From: an uncultured Acidobacteriota bacterium
Lineage (GTDB): Bacteria; Acidobacteriota; JAQAZP01
Direction: 5' to 3'
NCBI GenBank assembly: GCA_963836075.1
Contig: CAWIIB010000009.1
Coordinates: forward strand, 2,944,001 to 3,008,000
Length of the DNA stretch: 64,000 nt
Part shown: positions 35,040 to 44,299 of the stretch, one piece after another
Position numbering within the stretch: the stretch's first letter is position 1
Layout of the letters: each line of letters starts with the position of its first letter
The notes under the pieces: generated by a model
What the model saw: only the letters and a program-made list of their open reading frames with translations
Database searches by the model: none
What the model was told of the DNA's origin: nothing
Position numbers and translations under genes: made by a program

Positions 35040-35091
35040 GCCGAAGCCCCGCTCCCCCGGGGTTGCCGGGGAAGCGGGGAGGGGTATCAGG

Positions 35092-37855
35092 TTAGAAGGT
35101 GAAGCGCAGGCCGAGTCGCCAGGACTGCGGGGTCTGGAGATATTTCGGCCGGCCAAAGGGGTTGCCGCCCGTGGCGTCGGGGTCGTCCCACTCCCAGACC
35201 GTGATCACCTTGTCGCTGTCCAGCAGGTTGAGCACGTCGAGGAACGCGCCGACGGCATAACGGTCGCCAAAGGGGAAGGTTTTCTCCAGGTGGAGATCGA
35301 ACCAGTAGACGCTGGGCAGAGTGTAGGTGCCGCGGCCTTCGGGGAAGGCCATGTAGTCGTTGTAGCCGCCGCCGACATATCCTCTTCTGGAATAAGCCTG
35401 ACCGGAGCTGTACTCGAAGGCCAGGCCGACGTCGATGTCCCACGGCGCCCGGTAGAGGCCGTTGAGTTTCACGTGGTGGCGGATGTCGTCGGGCAGGTAG
35501 CCATACCAGCCGGCGTCGTCGTAGATGTTGCCCAGGCCATACCAGGTGTCGTCCGGCGGCGCATTGGGATCGGCGTCCATGAAGACACCGATGGTGTCCG
35601 AGCTGCCGCCGCTGTCACCCCACTCGCCCTGGCCGGGGTTGGTGCCCTTTGACTCGCCCCAGGTGTAGGATCCGAAGATCATGAAGTTGTTCGACATGGC
35701 CTTGTGGTAGGTCAGTTCCACGCCCTGGTAGTCGCGCCGCTTCAGATCGGGGTTGGTCACCAGCCAGTCGCCCGACTCCAGAACCACGTCCTCGATCAGG
35801 TCGCGGGTCTTGCTGTCGATGTAGCGGAGGCCCAGAGCCTGGGTGTCGGTGAGCTTGCGCTCGTAACCGATGATGAACTTGTCCTGGTGGTGCGGTTTGA
35901 GGTTGGGATCAAAGCCGTCCAGCGGGAAGAGGGGCTCGCCCTCGTTGCCGCCCTGGGTGAAGTTGTAGTCCCAGGTGCCGTTCCAGGTGGTGCCGTCGAT
36001 GTCGGTCCACTGGCCGGCGCCGTCCGGGTTCCAGAGGTAGTTGTGATAGGAACTGGTGGAGGATGAGTTCATCACCCAGCTGATGTTCAGTCCGGTGAAG
36101 TCGTAGAAGCGGCCCCAGAAGACCTTGGCCACGTTCACCGAGTCCTTGGTGATGTCCCACACCCCACCGATCCGCGGGGCGCTGGAGTTGATGTCGAAAT
36201 ACTCATCGCCAGCATTGTTCCGCATCGACATCTGCTCGTAGCGGTAGCCGAGGTTGAGGGTCACGTTTTCCGCAACGTCCCAGGTGTCCTGGATGAAGAA
36301 CGTCGTGCCGTCGTTGTCGTTGGGGTCGCCGGCCTGCTGGAAGCGGACGTCGAGGCTCTCCGGAGCGCCTTCATAGTAGGTGTAGTCGTAGCCGTTGCCG
36401 GGCAGCAGCCAGACTTCGTACTTGTCGGCCTCCAGGTATTCGATACCGGCCTTCAGCGAGTGGTCGCCCCAGGCGTCATCGATATACTGGGTGAAGTGCA
36501 GCTTGTAGTCGGTACTGGGTGGTGTCGTAGCTGTAGGTGCTGGCGCCGCCCCAGCTCTGGCTGGTGCCGCGGTCGAAGTACTGGGCGTTTTCGGTGTCTC
36601 CGTACGGCAGGATCTGCCGGTCCACCGTGGTGCTGCCGAACTTCAACTCGATGAACGAGTCGGGGGTCAGGATGCCGCGGTAGATGGCCCCGAAGTGGTC
36701 GAGGTCCCGCTTGTCGCTGCGCTGGGATTCGGGAGCGGTGTCGAAGTCGTCGCGGTTGTCGCGGTCGAAGCGCTGGCCGATCCAGGAGGCGTTGATCGAG
36801 TGGTTTTCGGTAATCGACCAGGACGCCTTGAGGAACGGGGCGATGTTTGTATCATCCCGCTCATACGAGTATCCGTAGTTTGTCTGCTGACTGGGGTCTT
36901 TCCAGGTCTGGGTGAGATACTCGAGGGAACCGAAATACCACAGCTTGTCCTTGACGATGGGGCCGCCGATATTGAACACCGGGGTGAAGTATTCCTGCTC
37001 CACCGAGCCCACTTGCGAGCCGTCGACGTTGGTTTGCGGGTTGCCGTCGCTGGGAATCAGGTAGGAGGCGATCAGGCTGCCTTCGACGCTGTTGCCGCCG
37101 CTCTTGGTGATCACGTTGGCCACCAGGCCGGTGGCCCGGCCATACTCGGCGGCGAAGCCGTCGGTGAGGATCTGGATCTCCTCGATGGCGTCGTAGTTGA
37201 TGTTGTGGCCGTAGCCGTTGGTCTCCGGGTCGCGGGCCGAGATGCCGTCGATGAGGAAGTTGTTCCCCACCTGGCCCTCACCGCGTGCGCTCGGGTTTCC
37301 GTCGCCCGAACCGCCGTACTGGGTGTCGGTGCGGCCCTGGACGCCGGGGACGAAGTTGAAGAGGTCCTGGTAGCTGCGGGTGGTGGGCAGGCGCTCCATG
37401 GCGTCCGACTCGAAGGAGGTCCCCACCTGGGTGGTGGTGACGTCGATCACCGGGGCCTGGGCCACAACGGTGATCTCGTCGGAAACCTGGGCCGGAGGCA
37501 TCTCGATTTCGATGATGGTGTCGGTTCCGACAGAGACCCTGATTTCAGTCTGAATGACGGTCTGGAAACCGTCCATTTCGGACTTGATGGTGTAGCGGCC
37601 GGGAGGGATCTGGACGAAACGGTAGGTGCCGTCAGTGTCGGTGACGACCTTGCGAGTGCCCTGGAGGTTGTCAGATTCGATTACAACTGTTGCACCGGGA
37701 AGCGGAACCCCTTCGGCGTCCATGATCACGCCCTGGATGGTTCCCACCTCGGCTGCCATTGCTTCCTGAACGGGAAGCGCCCACATGAACAGGAGAATGA
37801 GCGCTGCTCCCAGAGCAGCGTGCATCGAGGTTCTCGCGAACTTCAGGTTGCTCAT
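35092..37855 (-). CDS. TonB-dependent receptor (Oar-like, carboxypeptidase-regulatory N-domain), frameshifted near 36518
   Basis: G.PLPGATV, NNFLIDG, GFAAEYGRATG..NVITKSG, FIQDTW, APRIG, C-terminal LGLRFTF; removing one base rejoins the halves. Confidence 0.85.
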
Positions 37856-38197
37856 TCCGATCACTCCTCCTTTCGGCCGTAGCGGAGAAGCACTGACTTC
37901 GCCGTCAGCGGGCCGATCTGTTTTTATTTTTGTAGTTGTTTAGGTTGCTTTTTCCGCCGCGTCGTTCACCTGAGACGGTGCGGCCAGCCTTGCATTCACC
38001 TCCTTTCTCCTTTCCGGCCCCGGGGCCGGACCTTGACCGATACTCACGGCCGGTATGGTACCTGTGCAATCGCCTCTAAACCAGGGGTATCGGCAACAGG
38101 GCATGCCCTGTTAATGGCATCGGATCGGTTTTCCGAACCCCCTGGTCCGCGGGATGCGATTGTTCCGGTCATTGAAACCAGTCCAAACCAGTTGAGT

Positions 38198-38213
38198 TGC
38201 AATATTTCTGCCA
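38198..38213 (-). promoter_or_regulatory. Sigma54 (-24/-12) promoter for the TonB receptor
   Basis: Minus strand TGGCAG-AAATA-TTGCA with correct GG-N10-GC spacing. Confidence 0.62.
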
Positions 38214-38550
38214 TGATTTATTGGATAATCTCTAGTGGTCCCTTTATACCAAATTAATGAAAAATTGACAAGTTATCCCCGGCCGGGCTGTGTCTGGCCT
38301 TTGGGGAAGATGATTTTCTATCCATTTTCTTGGAGACTGGTTCAAGATTTTGAACCGCTGTGCGGAAGGCTGGTTGCCCGGCGGAACGGCGTACCCTGCA
38401 TATGATTGACATGGAAAGGGGTTGAAGGTATTCTGCCAAAGTTGCGCTGAAGCCGTTTTTATCCTTAGTTTTTTCCGGGGGAAAAAGGGAATACTGCCCG
38501 GATTCATCAGCCTGGTGGCCAGAATCATGGAGTGTGAACTGAAGAACCGA

Positions 38551-40221
38551 ATGTGGATCAGAGTGATGCTCCCCGTGATGGTGGTTGCTGTCCTGCTGGT
38601 TACCGGGGTATCGGGCCCCGCGGCGCACGGTTCACCCACACTGCATCAGGCTGCGGCCGGCAGTGGTGATGCGCTGCCGGTGAACGGGGTGAGCGAAGAC
38701 GAACCGCTGCGGTCGGCCCGTGATGGTGGAGCGGTGGACGGGGGAGGGGTTGTCCTGGCCACCGATACCCGCGCCACCGAGGGGGATACCCACCACCACG
38801 GGGAGTCCGGTCCCGCTGACGGTGCACACGCTGAAGACGAGGGGCACGGCGACGACCACGGACACCACGGGCCGGGCCTGGGCCGGCTGCTGCCGCTGTG
38901 GAGCGTAATTCCCTTTGCCGGGATCCTGCTCTCCATCGCCCTCTTTCCGCTGCTGGCGCCGAAGTTCTGGCACCATCACTTCCCGAAAATCTCCGCCGGC
39001 TGGGCGGTGCTCTTTGCCGTGCCCTTCCTCTTCGCTTTTGGCGGCGATGCGCTGTACGAGATTCTGCACATCTACTTCATCGACTACATCCCGTTCATCA
39101 TCCTGCTCTGGGCGCTCTACACCGTCTCCGGCGGCATCCGGATCAAGGGCACCCTGCGCGGCACGCCGGCGGTGAACTGCCTGCTGCTGCTCATCGGCAC
39201 GGCCATCGCCTCCTGGGTCGGCACCACCGGGGCGGCGATGCTGCTGATCAGGCCGCTGCTGCGGGCCAATCAGGACCGCCGGAACAAGGTCCACACCGTG
39301 GTCTTTTTCATCTTTCTGGTGGCCAACGTGGGCGGTTCGCTCACCCCCCTGGGGGACCCGCCGCTCTTTCTCGGTTTCCTGCACGGGGTGCCCTTCTTCT
39401 GGACGCTGAAGCTGCTGCCGGAGATGCTCTTCGTGGTGGCCTGCCTGATCACCATCTACTACGGCCTGGACAGCTACCACTACCGGCGGGAGGTCCGCGA
39501 TGGCGGCGGCATCCCCGATGACGGTGAGCGGGAACCGATCGGCTTCGAGGGGCTGCACAACCTGGTGTTCCTTGGCGGCATTCTGGGCGGAGTGATCCTC
39601 AGCGGCTTCTGGCGGCCCGGCTCGTACACCCTGCTGGGCGTCCACATGGACATCCAGAACACCGTCCGCGACATCATGCTGGTCTGCATGGGGCTGCTCT
39701 CACTCTGGACCACGAAGAAGACGGTGCGCAAGGCCAACGAGTTCACCTGGTTTCCCATCACCGAGGTGGCCTACCTCTTTGCCGGCATCTTCATGTGCAT
39801 CATCCCCGCCCTGGCCATTCTCAAGGCGGGCAGCGAGGGGGCGCTGGCCCCGATGCTGAGCCTGATCCGGGAGCCGGTGCACTATTTCTGGGTGGTGGGC
39901 TTACTCTCCAGTTTTCTCGACAACGCCCCCACCTACCTGACGTTCCTCAACTCGGCCCTGGGACAGTTCCATGCCGGGATGGCCGAACTTCCGGCAGTGA
40001 CCGCGCTGATTCACGACGAGGAGATCTACCTCAAGGCCATCGCCACCGGCGCGGTCTTCATGGGGGCCAACACCTACATCGGCAATGCTCCCAATTTCAT
40101 GGTCAAGTCCATCGCCGAGGAGTCGGGAGTGTCCATGCCGAGCTTCTTCGGCTACATGATCCGCTACTCGCTGATTATCCTGGTGCCGGTGTTCGTGTTG
40201 GTAACTGTTATCTTCTTTTAA
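38551..40221 (+). CDS. Ion-transporter superfamily protein (putative Na+/H+ antiporter or citrate transporter) with His-rich N-terminal extension
   Basis: GTTGAAMLLIRP, NVGGSLTPLGDPPLFLG, SSFLDNAPTY, TYIGNAPN; start codon uncertain. Confidence 0.85.
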   Translation: MWIRVMLPVMVVAVLLVTGVSGPAAHGSPTLHQAAAGSGDALPVNGVSEDEPLRSARDGGAVDGGGVVLATDTRATEGDTHHHGESGPADGAHAEDEGHGDDHGHHGPGLGRLLPLWSVIPFAGILLSIALFPLLAPKFWHHHFPKISAGWAVLFAVPFLFAFGGDALYEILHIYFIDYIPFIILLWALYTVSGGIRIKGTLRGTPAVNCLLLLIGTAIASWVGTTGAAMLLIRPLLRANQDRRNKVHTVVFFIFLVANVGGSLTPLGDPPLFLGFLHGVPFFWTLKLLPEMLFVVACLITIYYGLDSYHYRREVRDGGGIPDDGEREPIGFEGLHNLVFLGGILGGVILSGFWRPGSYTLLGVHMDIQNTVRDIMLVCMGLLSLWTTKKTVRKANEFTWFPITEVAYLFAGIFMCIIPALAILKAGSEGALAPMLSLIREPVHYFWVVGLLSSFLDNAPTYLTFLNSALGQFHAGMAELPAVTALIHDEEIYLKAIATGAVFMGANTYIGNAPNFMVKSIAEESGVSMPSFFGYMIRYSLIILVPVFVLVTVIFF

Positions 40222-40358
40222 AAATACTGTAACGTTTTCGGCTCTGATCCATCTAACTGTTGAGAGAGTGGTACGCTGAAGGTCCGGAACGGCCGGAAGG
40301 ATGACCCGAAATGGATAACGGAACTGCGGAAAGAATTCCGGAAAAGAAGGGACGCAAG

Positions 40359-40553
40359 ATGAGCGAAGTTCTGATCATCGTGCTTTTCCTGGTGGGCTGG
40401 TACGTGCTCAATGCCTTCATCCTGCCCTGGTGCGGTGTCTCAACGTGAATGAGCCGCAGTTGCGCGGTCGAGGATCGACCGGTCCAGGCGATGAGCGGGG
40501 ACGAGGATGGCGCGGTGAGGCCGGAGCCGGATAAGAAACCCATCGGAGAATAG
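40359..40553 (+). CDS. Candidate small membrane selenoprotein (64 aa, in-frame TGA at 40446-40448)
   Basis: MSEVLIIVLFLVGWYVLNAFILPWCGVST-U-MSRSC...PIGE-TAG; hairpin 40465-40481; TAG lies 4 nt before the next ATG; alternative start 40311. Confidence 0.6.
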
Positions 40554-40557
40554 AGCT

Positions 40558-40788
40558 ATGCCGATCTACGAGTACAAATGTCGTGAGTGTGAGCTCGTTT
40601 TCGAAGTGCTGAAGCGCTCCAGGCTGGCGGAAGATGAGCCGGAGCGGTGTCCGGGCTGCGGCGGGGAGGAAACGGACAAGCTCTATTCCTCCTTTGCCGG
40701 GATGGTGCCGGTGGCCGCCGGTGGCGGGTGCCCCAGCGCCGGGAGCAGCGGCTGCGGCGGAGGACAGGGAGGTTTTTCCTGAGGGTAG
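40558..40788 (+). CDS. FmdB-family zinc-ribbon protein, candidate selenoprotein ending GGFS-U-G-stop (ends 40782 if TGA is a stop)
   Basis: MPIYEYKC..C....E...CPGC; TGA GGG TAG followed by hairpin 40793-40811 with a GTG loop. Confidence 0.75.
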
Positions 40789-40897
40789 GACGACCCGGCG
40801 GTGCGCCGGGTGAATCCGAGCTGCGGAACCGATTGCAGATCCACAGGCCCCGGAACCGGGTTGGACCGGCCGGGGCCTCGTCTGGTACCGCCCCTGT

Positions 40898-41200
40898 TCA
40901 GGGCAGCTTTTTCCCCAGCTTCTCCTCCACCGCTTCGAGTTTGCGGCGGATGGCGCCGTCGGCGCCGTCCCGGTCGTCGATCTTGACCACCGTGGAGACC
41001 CGCGAGGAAAAGTCGCGCATCCTCAGGTGGCAGCGGCGGATCAGGTCGAAGACCTCGTCACAGGGGCCTTCAACCACCGTGCCCATGGGGTTTACCAGGT
41101 AGTCGAGGCCGCTCTCTTCCACCAGGCGCAGGATCTCGGCCACCGGCCCCGACATGCCACTGGCCCGGTCCACCGGAGCCACGCTGAATTCGGCTAGCAT
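40898..41200 (-). CDS. Thiamine-binding protein (MTH1187/YkoF family)
   Basis: MLAEFSVAP, SGLDY..NPMGTVVEG, RVSTVVKIDDR. Confidence 0.9.
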   Translation of the reverse strand: MLAEFSVAPVDRASGMSGPVAEILRLVEESGLDYLVNPMGTVVEGPCDEVFDLIRRCHLRMRDFSSRVSTVVKIDDRDGADGAIRRKLEAVEEKLGKKLP

Positions 41201-41214
41201 GATTGCATTCCTCC

Positions 41215-41955
41215 TCAGTACAACCCGCCGTCCACGGTGAGTACCTGGCCGGTGATGTAGGCCGCGTCGTCGGAGAGCAGGAAGAGCGCGGCGGCCGCGG
41301 CCTCGTCCACCGAGGCCATGCGGTTCATCGGGGTCATGGCCAGCAGCCGCTGGCGGGCCAGCTCGGGCAGGGTGGCGGTCATGTCCGTCTCCACCAGGCC
41401 CAGGGCGAGGCTGTTCACCCGCAGTCCCAGCTTGCCTACTTCCCGGGCCAGCGATTTGCCAAAGGCGATGGCGCCCGCTTTTGATGCCGCGTAGTTGGCC
41501 TGCCCCTCGGTGCCCATCAGGCCGCTGATCGAGGCGATGTTGAGGATCACCCCCGACTTGCGTTTCATCATCGAGACGATCACCGACTTGGTGAAGTTGA
41601 ACACCCCCTTCAGATTGACATCCAGCACCCGGTCCCAGGTCTCCTCGTCCATCATGAACAGCGCCCGGTCGGAACGGATGCCGGCGTTGTTCACCAGGAA
41701 GTCCACCTTGTCGTCGAAGGCCGTACGGAATGATTTCACCGCCGCGGTGACCGCCGCGCTGTCCGAGGCGTCAACCCGGGACGAGAGCGCCCGCACTCCC
41801 AGGGACTCCATCCGGGTCACCAGGCTGGCCGCCTCGTCCTCCCTGCTGTGGTAGGTGAAGGCCACGTGGCAGCCCCGGGCGGCCAGGGCCAGGGCGATGG
41901 CCCGCCCGATGCCTCGCGAGGCGCCGCTGACGATTGCGGTCTTGTCCTTGAACAT
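41215..41955 (-). CDS. fabG: 3-oxoacyl-ACP reductase (SDR)
   Basis: SGASRGIG, VNNAGI, YAASK, ITGQVLTVDGG; true start MFKDK. Confidence 0.88.
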   Translation of the reverse strand: MFKDKTAIVSGASRGIGRAIALALAARGCHVAFTYHSREDEAASLVTRMESLGVRALSSRVDASDSAAVTAAVKSFRTAFDDKVDFLVNNAGIRSDRALFMMDEETWDRVLDVNLKGVFNFTKSVIVSMMKRKSGVILNIASISGLMGTEGQANYAASKAGAIAFGKSLAREVGKLGLRVNSLALGLVETDMTATLPELARQRLLAMTPMNRMASVDEAAAAALFLLSDDAAYITGQVLTVDGGLY

Positions 41956-42034
41956 CGCTGTCTCGATTCCTCCCGTGCTGTTTCGCTGCTCCGCCGGCTG
42001 CCGATCCAGATGTATGGTATCACGCGACAGGCGG

Positions 42035-44299
42035 TCACCGGGGCGGCAGGGTGGAGTGGTAGATCTCGAAGTTGCCGTCCCGGTGGTCGTCCCACACCAC
42101 GTGCAGCGTGCCGTCGGGCGCGGGGTAGATCGAGGCGTCCATGGAGACGGCGCCGTCCCGGGTGATCCGGGTGGTGGGCGACCAGCCTGCGGGGCCCCGG
42201 GTCTTGTGGAAGACCTCGAAGTTGCCCACCGCCGAATCGGTCCAGACCAGCAGCACCGGCCCGTCGCCGTCCTGGGCCACCGAGGGGTGCCTGATCTCGT
42301 AGGCCCGCACCCTCGGGTGGTGCCAGGTGACCCGTTCCTCGGCGCCGCGGTCGCGGCCCAGCAGGCGGTAGTAAATCTCCTGCTGCCCATGGCGGCTGTC
42401 CACCCAGACCAGGTGCGCGCCACCTCCGGCCGCCGGCCAGGCTGCGGGTTGACCGGCGGCAGTGCCCTCCGGGGTCAGCCGGGTCACCGGCCCCCACTCC
42501 CCGTGGGCCAGCCTGCGGTAGTAGATGCCCGGCGCTCCCCGGGGCGGGGTCATTTTCCAGACCAGGTGCAGCGAGCCGTCAGCGGCATCGGGAACCAGGC
42601 CGGGGAAGAAACAGCGGCCGCCGGCCGGTGTCTGGCCCACCGGTTGCGGGGCGCCGGGCGGGCCGGCGTCCAGGCGGTTGTGGAAGATCTCCCGGCGGTC
42701 CTCCAACTGCCCGGGGAAGGCGAGGTGCAAGCGGCCGGCGCTGTCGCTGCAGAAGGAGGCCTTGTAGGCCACCAGGTCCTCAGGAGAGATTCGGCGGTCG
42801 GGGCTCCAGCCCTCCGCGGTGAGCGAGCGGGTGTAGATACCCATGGTGCCGGTGCGTTCGTCGGTGTAGAGCAGTGAGAGATTCCCCTGCTGGTCGGCCA
42901 GCAGGTCGGGGGTGCGCGAGGTCCAGCCGTCGCGGGGAGAGAGGCGTTGGGGCGGCGACCACTGTCCTCCGCTGAGCACCGAGTGGTAGATTTCATAAAT
43001 AATCCGGCCGCTCTTCTCATCATCCGGGCTGCCGGTTGCCGTGTCCCCCCGGGTGTAGTCGCTGGCGTCGAACCAGACCAGGTGCGGCCGGCCCTTGCCG
43101 TCGAAGGCCACGCTCCGGTCGTGGAGCGCAGCAGTGTGCGAGTTCCCCGGGGTGCGGGTGATCCGCCGGGGTTCGCTCCAGCGGTCACGGCCACCGGGCG
43201 GCAGGGGGAGCAGACCCTGGTTGTCCAGGCCCCGGGCAATCAGCTGGGCGAAGCGGAGGTGGCCCTGGGGGGACGGGTGGGGGTCGTCGGGAAGATAGAG
43301 CCGCGCCGGTTCCGGCTCGCCGGCCAGGGGCGTGAGCAGGTCGATCAGCGGGATCTCCAGCCGGCCGCAGGTCTCGGCCAGGGCAGCCCGGACCGGATCC
43401 TCTGCCGGGTCGGCGTCGATCAGTTGAAAGAGGGCCGGCAGCAGTACCACCACCAGGCGCCGGTGTTCCCCCGCATCGCCCACCACTTCCCGCGTCCTGA
43501 GCAGTACCCGTTCGAGGCGCTTCCGCTGATCAGCATCGGACCAGAGACGGTCGTATCGCCGGCGCTGGTCCTCCGCCTCGTCGGGGCGCGCACCGCCGAG
43601 GCGCAGCAACCGGTCCCAGCGCGTGCCCAGGAAGCGGTAGAAGTAGGAGTTGGCCCGCAGCCAGCCGCGGGGCGAGAAACCGCCGGCCGCAGCCAGGCCG
43701 GACTGCGGCATCTCCAGCTCTTCGTCCTGACCCCGGGCGAGGAACGGCTTTTCCATATCGTTGACGAAGAGGCAGAGCAGGACCAGCCGCGGGCGGTAGC
43801 GGTCGATGCTCAGTTCCACCAGCGCCGCCTGCTGTTCGAGGTTGTAGCCCGGGACGCCGAGGTTGAGCAGTCGCGGGCTCTTTCCGGGCCGGGCCAGGCC
43901 GGCGGCAGAAGTTTCCAGCAGCCTGGGAAAGGCCTGCTCCACGGCCACGCCGAATCCGGCGGTGAGCGAATCGCCCACCACGGCCACCCGCAGCTCTTTT
44001 GGCGAGAGCTGCTCGGGGAACGGGCGGTCGCGGAACCCGGCCTTGTTGGTGCGGAAGGGGACGCCGGCCACCTCGATCTCCAGTCCGGGGGCCAGGCTGT
44101 AGACCAGTGCCTGTTGCTCCGCCGGGACACAGCTCTCCCGCCAGTCCCAGCGCAGACCCATCAGCATGCTCTCGGCAATCCGGCAGGCGGCCTCACCGAT
44201 GGCCGCGGCCGCGGCCATGGTGAGAACGAGCAGGAGCAGGGAGGGCCAGAGCCGCCGGGTTCGCCGTCCCTCATCGTTCTGTTTTCGCTTGCCGGTCAT
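42035..44299 (-). CDS. Membrane-anchored SGNH/GDSL hydrolase fused to a C-terminal beta-propeller
   Basis: GDSLTAG, NLGVPGY, FVND, DDPHP; then repeated H(L/V)VW.D...EIY units. Confidence 0.78.
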   Translation of the reverse strand: MTGKRKQNDEGRRTRRLWPSLLLLVLTMAAAAAIGEAACRIAESMLMGLRWDWRESCVPAEQQALVYSLAPGLEIEVAGVPFRTNKAGFRDRPFPEQLSPKELRVAVVGDSLTAGFGVAVEQAFPRLLETSAAGLARPGKSPRLLNLGVPGYNLEQQAALVELSIDRYRPRLVLLCLFVNDMEKPFLARGQDEELEMPQSGLAAAGGFSPRGWLRANSYFYRFLGTRWDRLLRLGGARPDEAEDQRRRYDRLWSDADQRKRLERVLLRTREVVGDAGEHRRLVVVLLPALFQLIDADPAEDPVRAALAETCGRLEIPLIDLLTPLAGEPEPARLYLPDDPHPSPQGHLRFAQLIARGLDNQGLLPLPPGGRDRWSEPRRITRTPGNSHTAALHDRSVAFDGKGRPHLVWFDASDYTRGDTATGSPDDEKSGRIIYEIYHSVLSGGQWSPPQRLSPRDGWTSRTPDLLADQQGNLSLLYTDERTGTMGIYTRSLTAEGWSPDRRISPEDLVAYKASFCSDSAGRLHLAFPGQLEDRREIFHNRLDAGPPGAPQPVGQTPAGGRCFFPGLVPDAADGSLHLVWKMTPPRGAPGIYYRRLAHGEWGPVTRLTPEGTAAGQPAAWPAAGGGAHLVWVDSRHGQQEIYYRLLGRDRGAEERVTWHHPRVRAYEIRHPSVAQDGDGPVLLVWTDSAVGNFEVFHKTRGPAGWSPTTRITRDGAVSMDASIYPAPDGTLHVVWDDHRDGNFEIYHSTLPPR

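Follow-up and report, generated by a model that had tools for sequence, protein, structure and literature searches.

Two adjacent small genes with in-frame TGA codons in an uncultured Acidobacteriota bacterium probably encode a membrane mini-selenoprotein and an FmdB-family zinc-ribbon selenoprotein

Selenoproteins mark places where cells need chemistry stronger than that of a thiol, and each new family points to such a reaction. Recoding of UGA as selenocysteine (Sec, U) with a bacterial Sec insertion sequence (SECIS), including one that lies beyond the stop codon, is already known, and the engineered Sel-tag, a construct of 1999, reportedly had its SECIS placed after the stop codon. The present analysis concerns two adjacent small genes in a stretch of 64,000 nucleotides (the window; contig CAWIIB010000009.1, positions 2,944,001 to 3,008,000, assembly GCA_963836075.1) from an uncultured Acidobacteriota bacterium of lineage JAQAZP01. 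Gene 1 encodes a membrane mini-protein and gene 2 a zinc ribbon of the FmdB family, and each contains an in-frame TGA (Table 1). Judging from their relatives, the TGA of gene 1 very probably encodes Sec and that of gene 2 quite probably does; that both do so is probable. Comparison establishes, at the level of sequence, the recoding of UGA, the accompanying hairpins, an exchange of Sec and Cys in gene 1 and a recurrent gene order.

In the consensus model of the bacterial SECIS, as set out in PMC13188914, a small apical loop with a G within its first two positions lies 16-37 nt after the UGA. The two genes resemble bacterial selenoprotein genes of the fdhF type in the in-frame UGA, the loop G, the 16-37 nt spacing, the exchange of Sec and Cys among homologues (gene 1 only) and the dependence on selA, selB, selC and selD. 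Unlike fdhF-type genes, they belong to other protein families, gene 1 encoding a one-helix membrane protein of about 60 residues with a T-U-x4-C motif; a search of the family table of PMC13188914 did not turn up the motif 'UxxxxC'.

The C-terminal-Sec families of NCBIfam that are named in PMC13188914 (UXX-star 1 and 2, NF041114 and NF041211; KCU-star, NF033934; and a GUXX-star fusion, NF041212; Haft and co-workers) share with gene 2 only this design, the UXX-star and KCU-star proteins being glutaredoxin-like or DUF466 proteins whereas gene 2 is an FmdB zinc ribbon. Gene 2 is not hit by NF041211, whose top match in this genome is at another locus (15.7 bits, E 0.08). FmdB-family selenoproteins have been predicted from the Global Ocean Sampling metagenome (Zhang and Gladyshev 2008, PMC2398784), with the motif UxxU according to PMC13188914. 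They belong to the same family as gene 2 (TIGR02605/COG2331). According to PMC2398784, however, Sec there replaces a Cys of the CxxC zinc knuckle, whereas in gene 2 the four knuckle Cys are ordinary and Sec would be the penultimate residue of the tail. NF041197 (CxxC_Se_CxxC; OS_HP3 or hypothetical protein DW) likewise covers small proteins that combine one Sec with a pair of CXXC motifs; it does not match gene 2 (best genome hit elsewhere, 14.4 bits, E 0.3), and no selenoprotein model of NCBIfam (in scans at E up to 10) or of Pfam matched gene 2.

The end of gene 2 is also reminiscent of mammalian thioredoxin reductase (-Gly-Cys-Sec-Gly, GCUG) and of the Sel-tag (PMC4936982), with Sec-Gly-stop on a flexible tail and a bacterial-type SECIS serving such an end. 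Unlike thioredoxin reductase, gene 2 has no adjacent Cys (the nearest lies 6-10 residues upstream) and encodes a zinc ribbon, not a flavoenzyme, so that the resemblance is one of design only. Neither the form of gene 1 nor an FmdB protein with a C-terminal Sec was found described in the literature searched, which included the deep-Sep and BSepDB papers and did not cover Haft and Tolstoy 2025.

An earlier note on this DNA had proposed that standard calling of open reading frames (ORFs) misses two selenoprotein genes here: adjacent, 4 nt apart, each with an in-frame TGA and a frame that then closes on TAG, and each with a tight hairpin whose loop starts with G about 18-23 nt after the TGA. All of this layout is present in the sequence. 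The ATG of gene 2 (40558) lies 4 nt past the TAG of gene 1, preceded at 8 nt by a GGAGA motif within the 3' end of gene 1, and the loops GGA and GUG begin 23 and 18 nt after their TGAs, respectively. The proposal that both are selenoprotein genes is also supported, given the Sec machinery, the conservation and the covarying hairpins described below, and public gene calls do end at the TGA.

Table 1. Coordinates of the two genes, their in-frame TGA codons and the associated hairpins in the window
Feature	Position	Strand	Details and evidence
Gene 1, membrane mini-protein, 64 codons	40359-40553	+	TAG stop 40551-40553; readthrough and alignment of relatives
In-frame TGA of gene 1 (predicted selenocysteine U30)	40446-40448	+	Conserved in-frame TGA
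SECIS-like hairpin of gene 1, within the coding sequence	40462-40483	+	Stem 40465-40471 with 40475-40481; loop GGA 40472-40474
Gene 2, FmdB-family zinc ribbon, 76 codons, ...GGQGGFS-U-G (predicted)	40558-40788	+	TAG stop 40786-40788; PF09723/TIGR02605
TGA of gene 2, read as penultimate selenocysteine U75 (predicted)	40780-40782	+	Conserved F-x-TGA tail
SECIS-like hairpin of gene 2, past the stop codon (3' UTR)	40793-40811	+	Stem 40794-40800 with 40804-40810; loop GUG 40801-40803

The genome has the means to decode UGA as Sec. The earlier note had made its proposal depend on this machinery, and selA (488 bits), selB (366 bits, above the curated cut-off), selD and a tRNA-Sec with anticodon tca are all encoded. 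There are two copies of selD, each with one in-frame TGA inside the family match (one at G000:C9:892330-893256), and SelD is thus probably itself a selenoprotein here. TGA is at the same time the main stop codon of the genome, ending 5422 of 7807 long open frames.

An ORF at 40311-40448 (45 aa) stops on the TGA of gene 1, after which the frame stays open for 34 codons more. The earlier note had begun the gene at 40311; that ORF exists, but ATG 40359 is the likely start, since AAGGGA stands 6 nt upstream of it and it leaves 29 codons before the TGA, as in nearly all relatives. The alternative ATG at 40311 would add 16 poorly conserved residues. Read through, the product would be MSEVLIIVLFLVGWYVLNAFILPWCGVST-U-MSRSC..., a one-helix membrane mini-protein. 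Aligned products share a layout of 2-4 N-terminal residues, a hydrophobic helix, L-P-(K/R)-x-G-V-x-T-U-M-S-x-S-C and a charged tail, with P23, G26, T29, U30 and C35 invariant in an alignment of 18 sequences. No Pfam or NCBIfam family and no selenoprotein model matched gene 1 in scans at E up to 10.

Searching with gene 1 of the window retrieved six close relatives only, all truncated at the TGA, gene callers giving the 45-aa piece. A six-frame search of 60 relatives revealed 17 more genomes with matches across the TGA, and each of these has a single in-frame TGA, always in the same position. Across the phylum (401 genomes, a tally that takes in three unpublished ones, G025, G048 and G151, from which no analysed locus was drawn), a profile scan found gene 1 in 112 genomes and a TGA within 103 of 114 matches. 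Nine of the ten matches scored as having no stop end at model position 29, immediately ahead of the TGA column, and the next codon was TGA in all 11 fetched cases (eight of those matches and three short ones). The tenth, in genome G359, spans the site and reads TGT.

A second subfamily (loci L056-L066 and L082), to which the 11 fetched cases belong, follows the helix with T-U-(A/G)-V-P-x-P and lacks the Cys at +5; TGA is present in 12/12 of its contexts and an FmdB gene with the tail of gene 2 (FmdB-U) adjoins in 3/12. Possession of gene 1 goes with possession of the Sec pathway: selA was detected in 110 of the 112 carriers vs 312 of 401 genomes overall. The two exceptions are G359, which has neither selA nor selB and carries the Cys form, and G329, whose genome is 64% complete. 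In G229 the selA hit is weak and selB is full.

Outside the phylum the same position is occupied by either TGA or Cys codons. Searching 1.84 billion representative proteins with the profile gave 2058 matches (126 at E up to 1e-10), and most of the 31 called proteins that were inspected individually cover the full length and carry Cys in place of Sec (T-C-M-S-G-A/S-C). Five of them have W there, most simply explained as TGA called as Trp. One of the 31, P0120, is a repetitive 592-aa protein without the motif. The only result for a Cys form in a protein atlas was a 'hypothetical protein' cluster (0.86), with no family given. Data with one genome per species contained 357 stretches encoding relatives of gene 1, retrieved with an alignment of Cys forms as query. 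The best 80 are mainly from Planctomycetota, with others from Acidobacteriota, Verrucomicrobiales, Thermodesulfobacteriota, Desulfuromonadales, Myxococcales, Syntrophobacteraceae and one spirochaete. In a codon census of 79 of these 80, the Sec column is TGA at 46 loci and TGY at 33 (TGC 22, TGT 11), and the residue after U is often encoded by a non-start codon (A, T, R, L or I). Homologues of gene 1 thus carry TGA or Cys at the aligned site with both flanks conserved, as the earlier note had anticipated.

The hairpin of gene 1 has a G+C-rich stem of 7 bp. The hairpin test was passed in 32/34 contexts of the main subfamily in the phylum set and in 10/12 of the second subfamily, all 12 of which have a hairpin that begins about 15 nt after the TGA. 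Stem sequences vary from one relative to another, but the position is retained. In an alignment fitted to a covariance model (A5), 78.1% of cells are paired vs 56.3% in shuffles (0/500 shuffles reach the observed value), and double-change cells number 43 vs 13.8. In other phyla the hairpin accompanies 42/46 TGA forms, with the loop starting at 23-25 nt in 36 of these 42, and is found in 9/33 Cys forms, which is the background rate, at scattered loop positions; this ties the hairpin, as far as the sequences go, to the TGA and not to the encoded peptide. At one planctomycete locus (L107, Planctomycetales, MKTT01000121.1) a Cys form (TGC) still has the GCGGTG-TCA-CCGC hairpin typical of relatives with Sec, which looks like a recent change from Sec to Cys.

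In gene 2, 74 codons run from the ATG to the TGA, followed by GGG and then TAG. The product matches PF09723 (52.3 bits, cut-off 34.4, E 5.5e-14) and TIGR02605 (54.9 bits, cut-off 31.3, E 6.5e-15) over an N-terminal ribbon domain of about 45 residues with two CxxC motifs. C8, C11, C31 and C34 are all specified by Cys codons, and the sole TGA is codon 75, at the end of a flexible-type, Gly/Ser-rich tail finishing F-S-U-G. In an AlphaFold (AF2) model the ribbon core has a predicted local distance difference test score (pLDDT) of about 80 and tail residues 47-72 fall below 50, which is compatible with a flexible arm.

The tail is conserved past its apparent end. All 22 FmdB genes that stand beside gene 1 end with TGA, one or two codons and a stop. 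Among 30 distinct relatives with this tail, eight of them from genomes where the FmdB-U gene is not beside gene 1, every one ends ...G-F-(S/T/G/R)-TGA, then one or two codons (four in one case) and a stop. The first stop is always TGA, never TAA or TAG, and the second may be TGA, TAG or TAA. Directly past the TGA stands an Ala codon in 25 (GCG 14, GCC 6, GCA 3, GCT 2) and a Gly codon (GGN) in five, and the second is mostly for Gly or Ser; in three genomes of the window's genus the end reads TGA GGG TAG twice and TGA GGA TAG once. Synonymous change with the residue kept indicates selection at the protein level beyond the 'stop' of gene 2, at least on the evidence of these codons, and on this point too the homologues agree with the earlier note. 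The best 120 called homologues come, where the source is named, from Acidobacteriota, Thermoanaerobaculaceae, the FCB group and KSB1, and are called FmdB or zinc-ribbon proteins; 116 of them terminate exactly at ...F-(S/T/G/R/A), as if cut at the TGA.

In control sets this arrangement is absent or rare. Eleven other FmdB paralogues, with Cys-rich tails (...CSSCSASSCAGCKGH), run for 25-497 codons to the next in-frame stop; a second stop one or two codons on follows 3.8% of the 5422 long frames of the genome that end in TGA, and this together with a hairpin was seen at 9 of 600 ordinary TGA stops. Every genome in which the tail form of gene 2 was observed has Sec machinery, apart from a single genome of 64% completeness. 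Full-length FmdB matches without a stop that were fetched from the phylum (n = 12) comprised 11 Cys-rich paralogues and one, L076, that lacks an FmdB start by the pattern used. A genome with neither selA nor selB (G266) was considered as a carrier of the TGA form of FmdB and discarded, its gene proving to be a Cys-rich paralogue with an ordinary stop.

The hairpin of gene 2 has a G+C-rich stem of 7-8 bp. Its counterpart was detected in 27/30 contexts of relatives; in the three others the minimum-energy fold picked another hairpin, and the sequence contains a stem of the GGTGC-CGTGA-GCACC type. Most loops read CGUGA, GUG, GGU or GGUC, so that a motif with GU is retained 17-25 nt past the TGA. 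In alignment A6, made up of the 19 loci that a covariance model of the hairpin recovered, 94.7% of cells are paired vs 65.2% in shuffles and 32-55% with the partner slid, and double-change cells number 22 vs 4.8 in shuffles. Both hairpins covary and, in line with the note, fit the published bacterial SECIS model. No T-run follows the gene 2 hairpin, and scans for promoters and terminators in 40100-41000 found none.

Several results weigh against reading both TGAs as Sec. Folded alone, the hairpins are not exceptional (gene 1: z -1.56, 18/200 shuffles folding at least as well; gene 2: z -1.57, 15/200), and the hairpin test is passed by 161/600 (27%) of ordinary TGA stops in the genome and by 4/11 of the other FmdB paralogues. 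It is comparison with relatives, on the sequences at hand, that gives both hairpins their significance and not single folds. The covariation counts themselves come from structure-fitted (covariance-model) alignments of related sequences, and plain MAFFT alignments with RNAalifold yield only three consensus pairs per hairpin, because 3- and 4-nt loops shift the register. The covariance model of the gene 2 hairpin recovers 19 of 30 loci (E up to 0.01) and misses the window's own genus. No SECIS or other credible Rfam family was found in 38000-43000 at E up to 10, and an Rfam scan of three related loci gave no match. No clear Cys orthologue of gene 2 was found among the 120 called homologues and the 12 fetched phylum matches, one of the 120 ending GFG-C-CPH, and in other phyla an FmdB-U gene follows gene 1 at only 1 of 79 loci. 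On the supporting side, metatranscriptome libraries from two studies contain contigs that map to 40289-40497, 40348-40587, 40566-40771 and 40573-40757, that at 40348-40587 spanning the first TGA and the junction of the two genes at 100% identity; they attest presence in RNA libraries, short of proof of transcription. Such contigs leave 40100-40288 and 40782-41000 uncovered, a gap from which no conclusion is drawn. Selenium in either protein is a prediction from comparison.

Some of these points would be explained if gene 1 alone were a selenoprotein, the TGA of gene 2 being a true stop, the second stop a tandem back-up and the hairpin an element of transcript end or stability. Hairpins after stops are common, as the ordinary stops and other paralogues show, the window's own gene 2 hairpin escaped the covariance model, no clear Cys orthologue marks the site, and recoding would add merely one or two residues. 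A tandem back-up, however, sits poorly with a first stop that is TGA in 30/30 relatives followed by a second that may be any of the three, with Ala or Gly retained through all four Ala codons, or with the lack of a nearby second stop in all 11 paralogues without the GFS tail. Nor do the GU-containing loop motif kept at its distance from the TGA, the missing T-run or terminator and the restriction of the tail form to genomes with Sec machinery (or the one 64% complete) favour a transcript-end element, and this explanation is unlikely.

Recoding of neither TGA is far less probable still. Gene 1 would then be a membrane peptide of 29-45 aa, translationally coupled (TGA-ATG) to a 34-aa peptide that starts from the ATG after the TGA; that codon is indeed ATG in the window and in many relatives, and gene callers report the 45-aa piece. 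In many other relatives, though, it is GCC, GCG, ACG, AGG, CTG or ATC, none of them a start, and at 33/79 loci elsewhere Cys stands in one uninterrupted frame with the Met kept internally. The association of the hairpin with TGA and not Cys, and of the TGA form with selA, likewise tells against coupled peptides. Least probable of all, and close to negligible, is that general stop reassignment or leaky termination places an ordinary residue (Trp, Cys or Gly) at the TGAs. Some public calls do show W at the gene 1 site, but these most simply reflect a TGA=Trp table; TGA is the main stop codon of a genome with complete Sec machinery, and a hairpin of the SECIS model accompanies the codon at a specific position. 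Sec at both sites remains the preferred reading.

Between gene 2 and a convergent gene of the thiamine-binding family lies a second, longer G+C-rich inverted repeat (GGCCCCGG...CCGGGGCC; 40843-40880). Its Rfam matches are weak and at chance level, and transcripts from both sides may in fact end here.

In the window, gene 1 lies 138 nt past a transporter gene of the CitMHS_2 type (38422-40221, plus strand), and the thiamine-binding-family gene and a FabG-like gene converge on the gene pair from the other side; this neighbourhood is common only to two congeners. The transporter has an N-terminal extension of about 150 residues with a His/Asp/Gly-rich stretch (HHHGESG...GHGDDHGHHG), which hints at metal binding. 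Further upstream, a split gene for a TonB-dependent receptor (35080-37864, minus strand; ORFs 36476-37864 and 35092-36264) was tried as another Sec site and rejected. Readthrough with TGA as U makes the second half garbled and Arg/Pro-rich, and the split is a frameshift (a pseudogene or an assembly error).

The order of the two genes recurs in the phylum, as the earlier note had expected: FmdB-U lies downstream of gene 1 on the same strand at 19 of the 30 best loci. The pairing is not universal, so the two proteins may act independently. Within one family of the phylum the genes stand in the order cysteine-desulfurase-type class-V aminotransferase, YgaP-like transmembrane protein (64-80 aa, with an NWCP motif), gene 1, thioredoxin and FmdB-U. 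A YgaP-like gene is also found 170-620 nt downstream of gene 1 at 24/79 loci of other phyla, and all eight YgaP-like proteins tested match PF11127; the NWCP motif was not found in the 64-kb window. P0097, a called protein of 208 aa, has a gene-1-like N-terminus (helix and T-C-M-S-G-Q-C) that runs into a thioredoxin domain (WCGPC); it may be a natural fusion, or two neighbouring genes may have been merged in the call. Other neighbours of gene 1 include DUF302, ArsR, Usp and RND pumps, a sulphur-transport (YeeE/YedE-type) gene adjoining one for a rhodanese/metallo-beta-lactamase-fold protein and, beside a Cys form, a CoA-disulfide-reductase-like rhodanese fusion. The earlier note had suggested a redox or metal-handling module, for which the thioredoxin, cysteine-desulfurase-like and YgaP-like neighbours would favour thiol or sulfur chemistry.

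Upstream of the cluster of YgaP, gene 1, thioredoxin and FmdB genes, the words GTTACC and GCATCT, about 15-17 nt apart, are invariant some 60-100 nt before the YgaP-like gene. They occur in nine genomes (loci L028, L030, L036, L037, L043, L046, L048, L049 and L053), have no Rfam match there and may be a promoter or operator.

If both UGAs are decoded by SelB and tRNA-Sec, aided by the hairpin just downstream, gene 1 would yield a protein of about 64 residues with a short N-terminus, one helix, a U-x4-C pair (T-U-M-S-R-S-C) at the inner face of the membrane and a charged tail, and gene 2 a zinc ribbon of 76 residues with its SECIS beyond the real stop codon. The U-x4-C pair is placed on the cytoplasmic face by inference from the K/R directly after the helix and the short acidic N-terminus (the positive-inside rule); neither the zinc ribbon nor thioredoxin carries an export signal, so that the three proteins would come together in the cytoplasm. 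The membrane-tethered U/C-x4-C pair could then cycle between a selenenylsulfide and a reduced state, with thioredoxin re-reducing the selenenylsulfide, and the C-terminal selenol of gene 2 could act, like the GCUG tail of mammalian thioredoxin reductase, as a swinging arm that passes sulfur, selenium or electrons to or from the gene 1 pair. The setting might be the handling of reactive sulfur or selenium together with YgaP-like membrane proteins.

As a functional proposal, a redox or sulfur/selenium-carrying centre in the U/C-x4-C pair, reset by thioredoxin and served by the zinc-ribbon selenol as carrier arm, is tentative, though the most probable of the roles considered. The main functional alternative, binding of a metal or metalloid, draws on the Cys-rich tails seen in the paralogues, on the His-rich transporter and on neighbours such as ArsR and RND, and is rather unlikely. 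Equally speculative is the broader idea that both proteins belong to a selenium-dependent relay, not described so far, at the inner membrane face, with thioredoxin, a cysteine-desulfurase-type enzyme and YgaP-like (NWCP) proteins. Such a relay, if true, would hand on sulfur or selenium as persulfide or perselenide, or else reducing power, to a partner in the membrane; it would be spread over anaerobic Desulfobacterota-like bacteria, Planctomycetota and Acidobacteriota, and would have escaped notice because every component has fewer than 80 residues.

Comparison of sequences supports gene 1 and gene 2 as new members of the bacterial selenoproteins, widespread and truncated in databases, with no new kind of mechanism. 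Correcting the truncated calls would change counts of selenoproteomes, and the corrected families would allow a link of gene 1 with thioredoxin and YgaP-like proteins to be tested. A C-terminal Sec would give the FmdB zinc ribbons, a family without known function, their first chemical handle.

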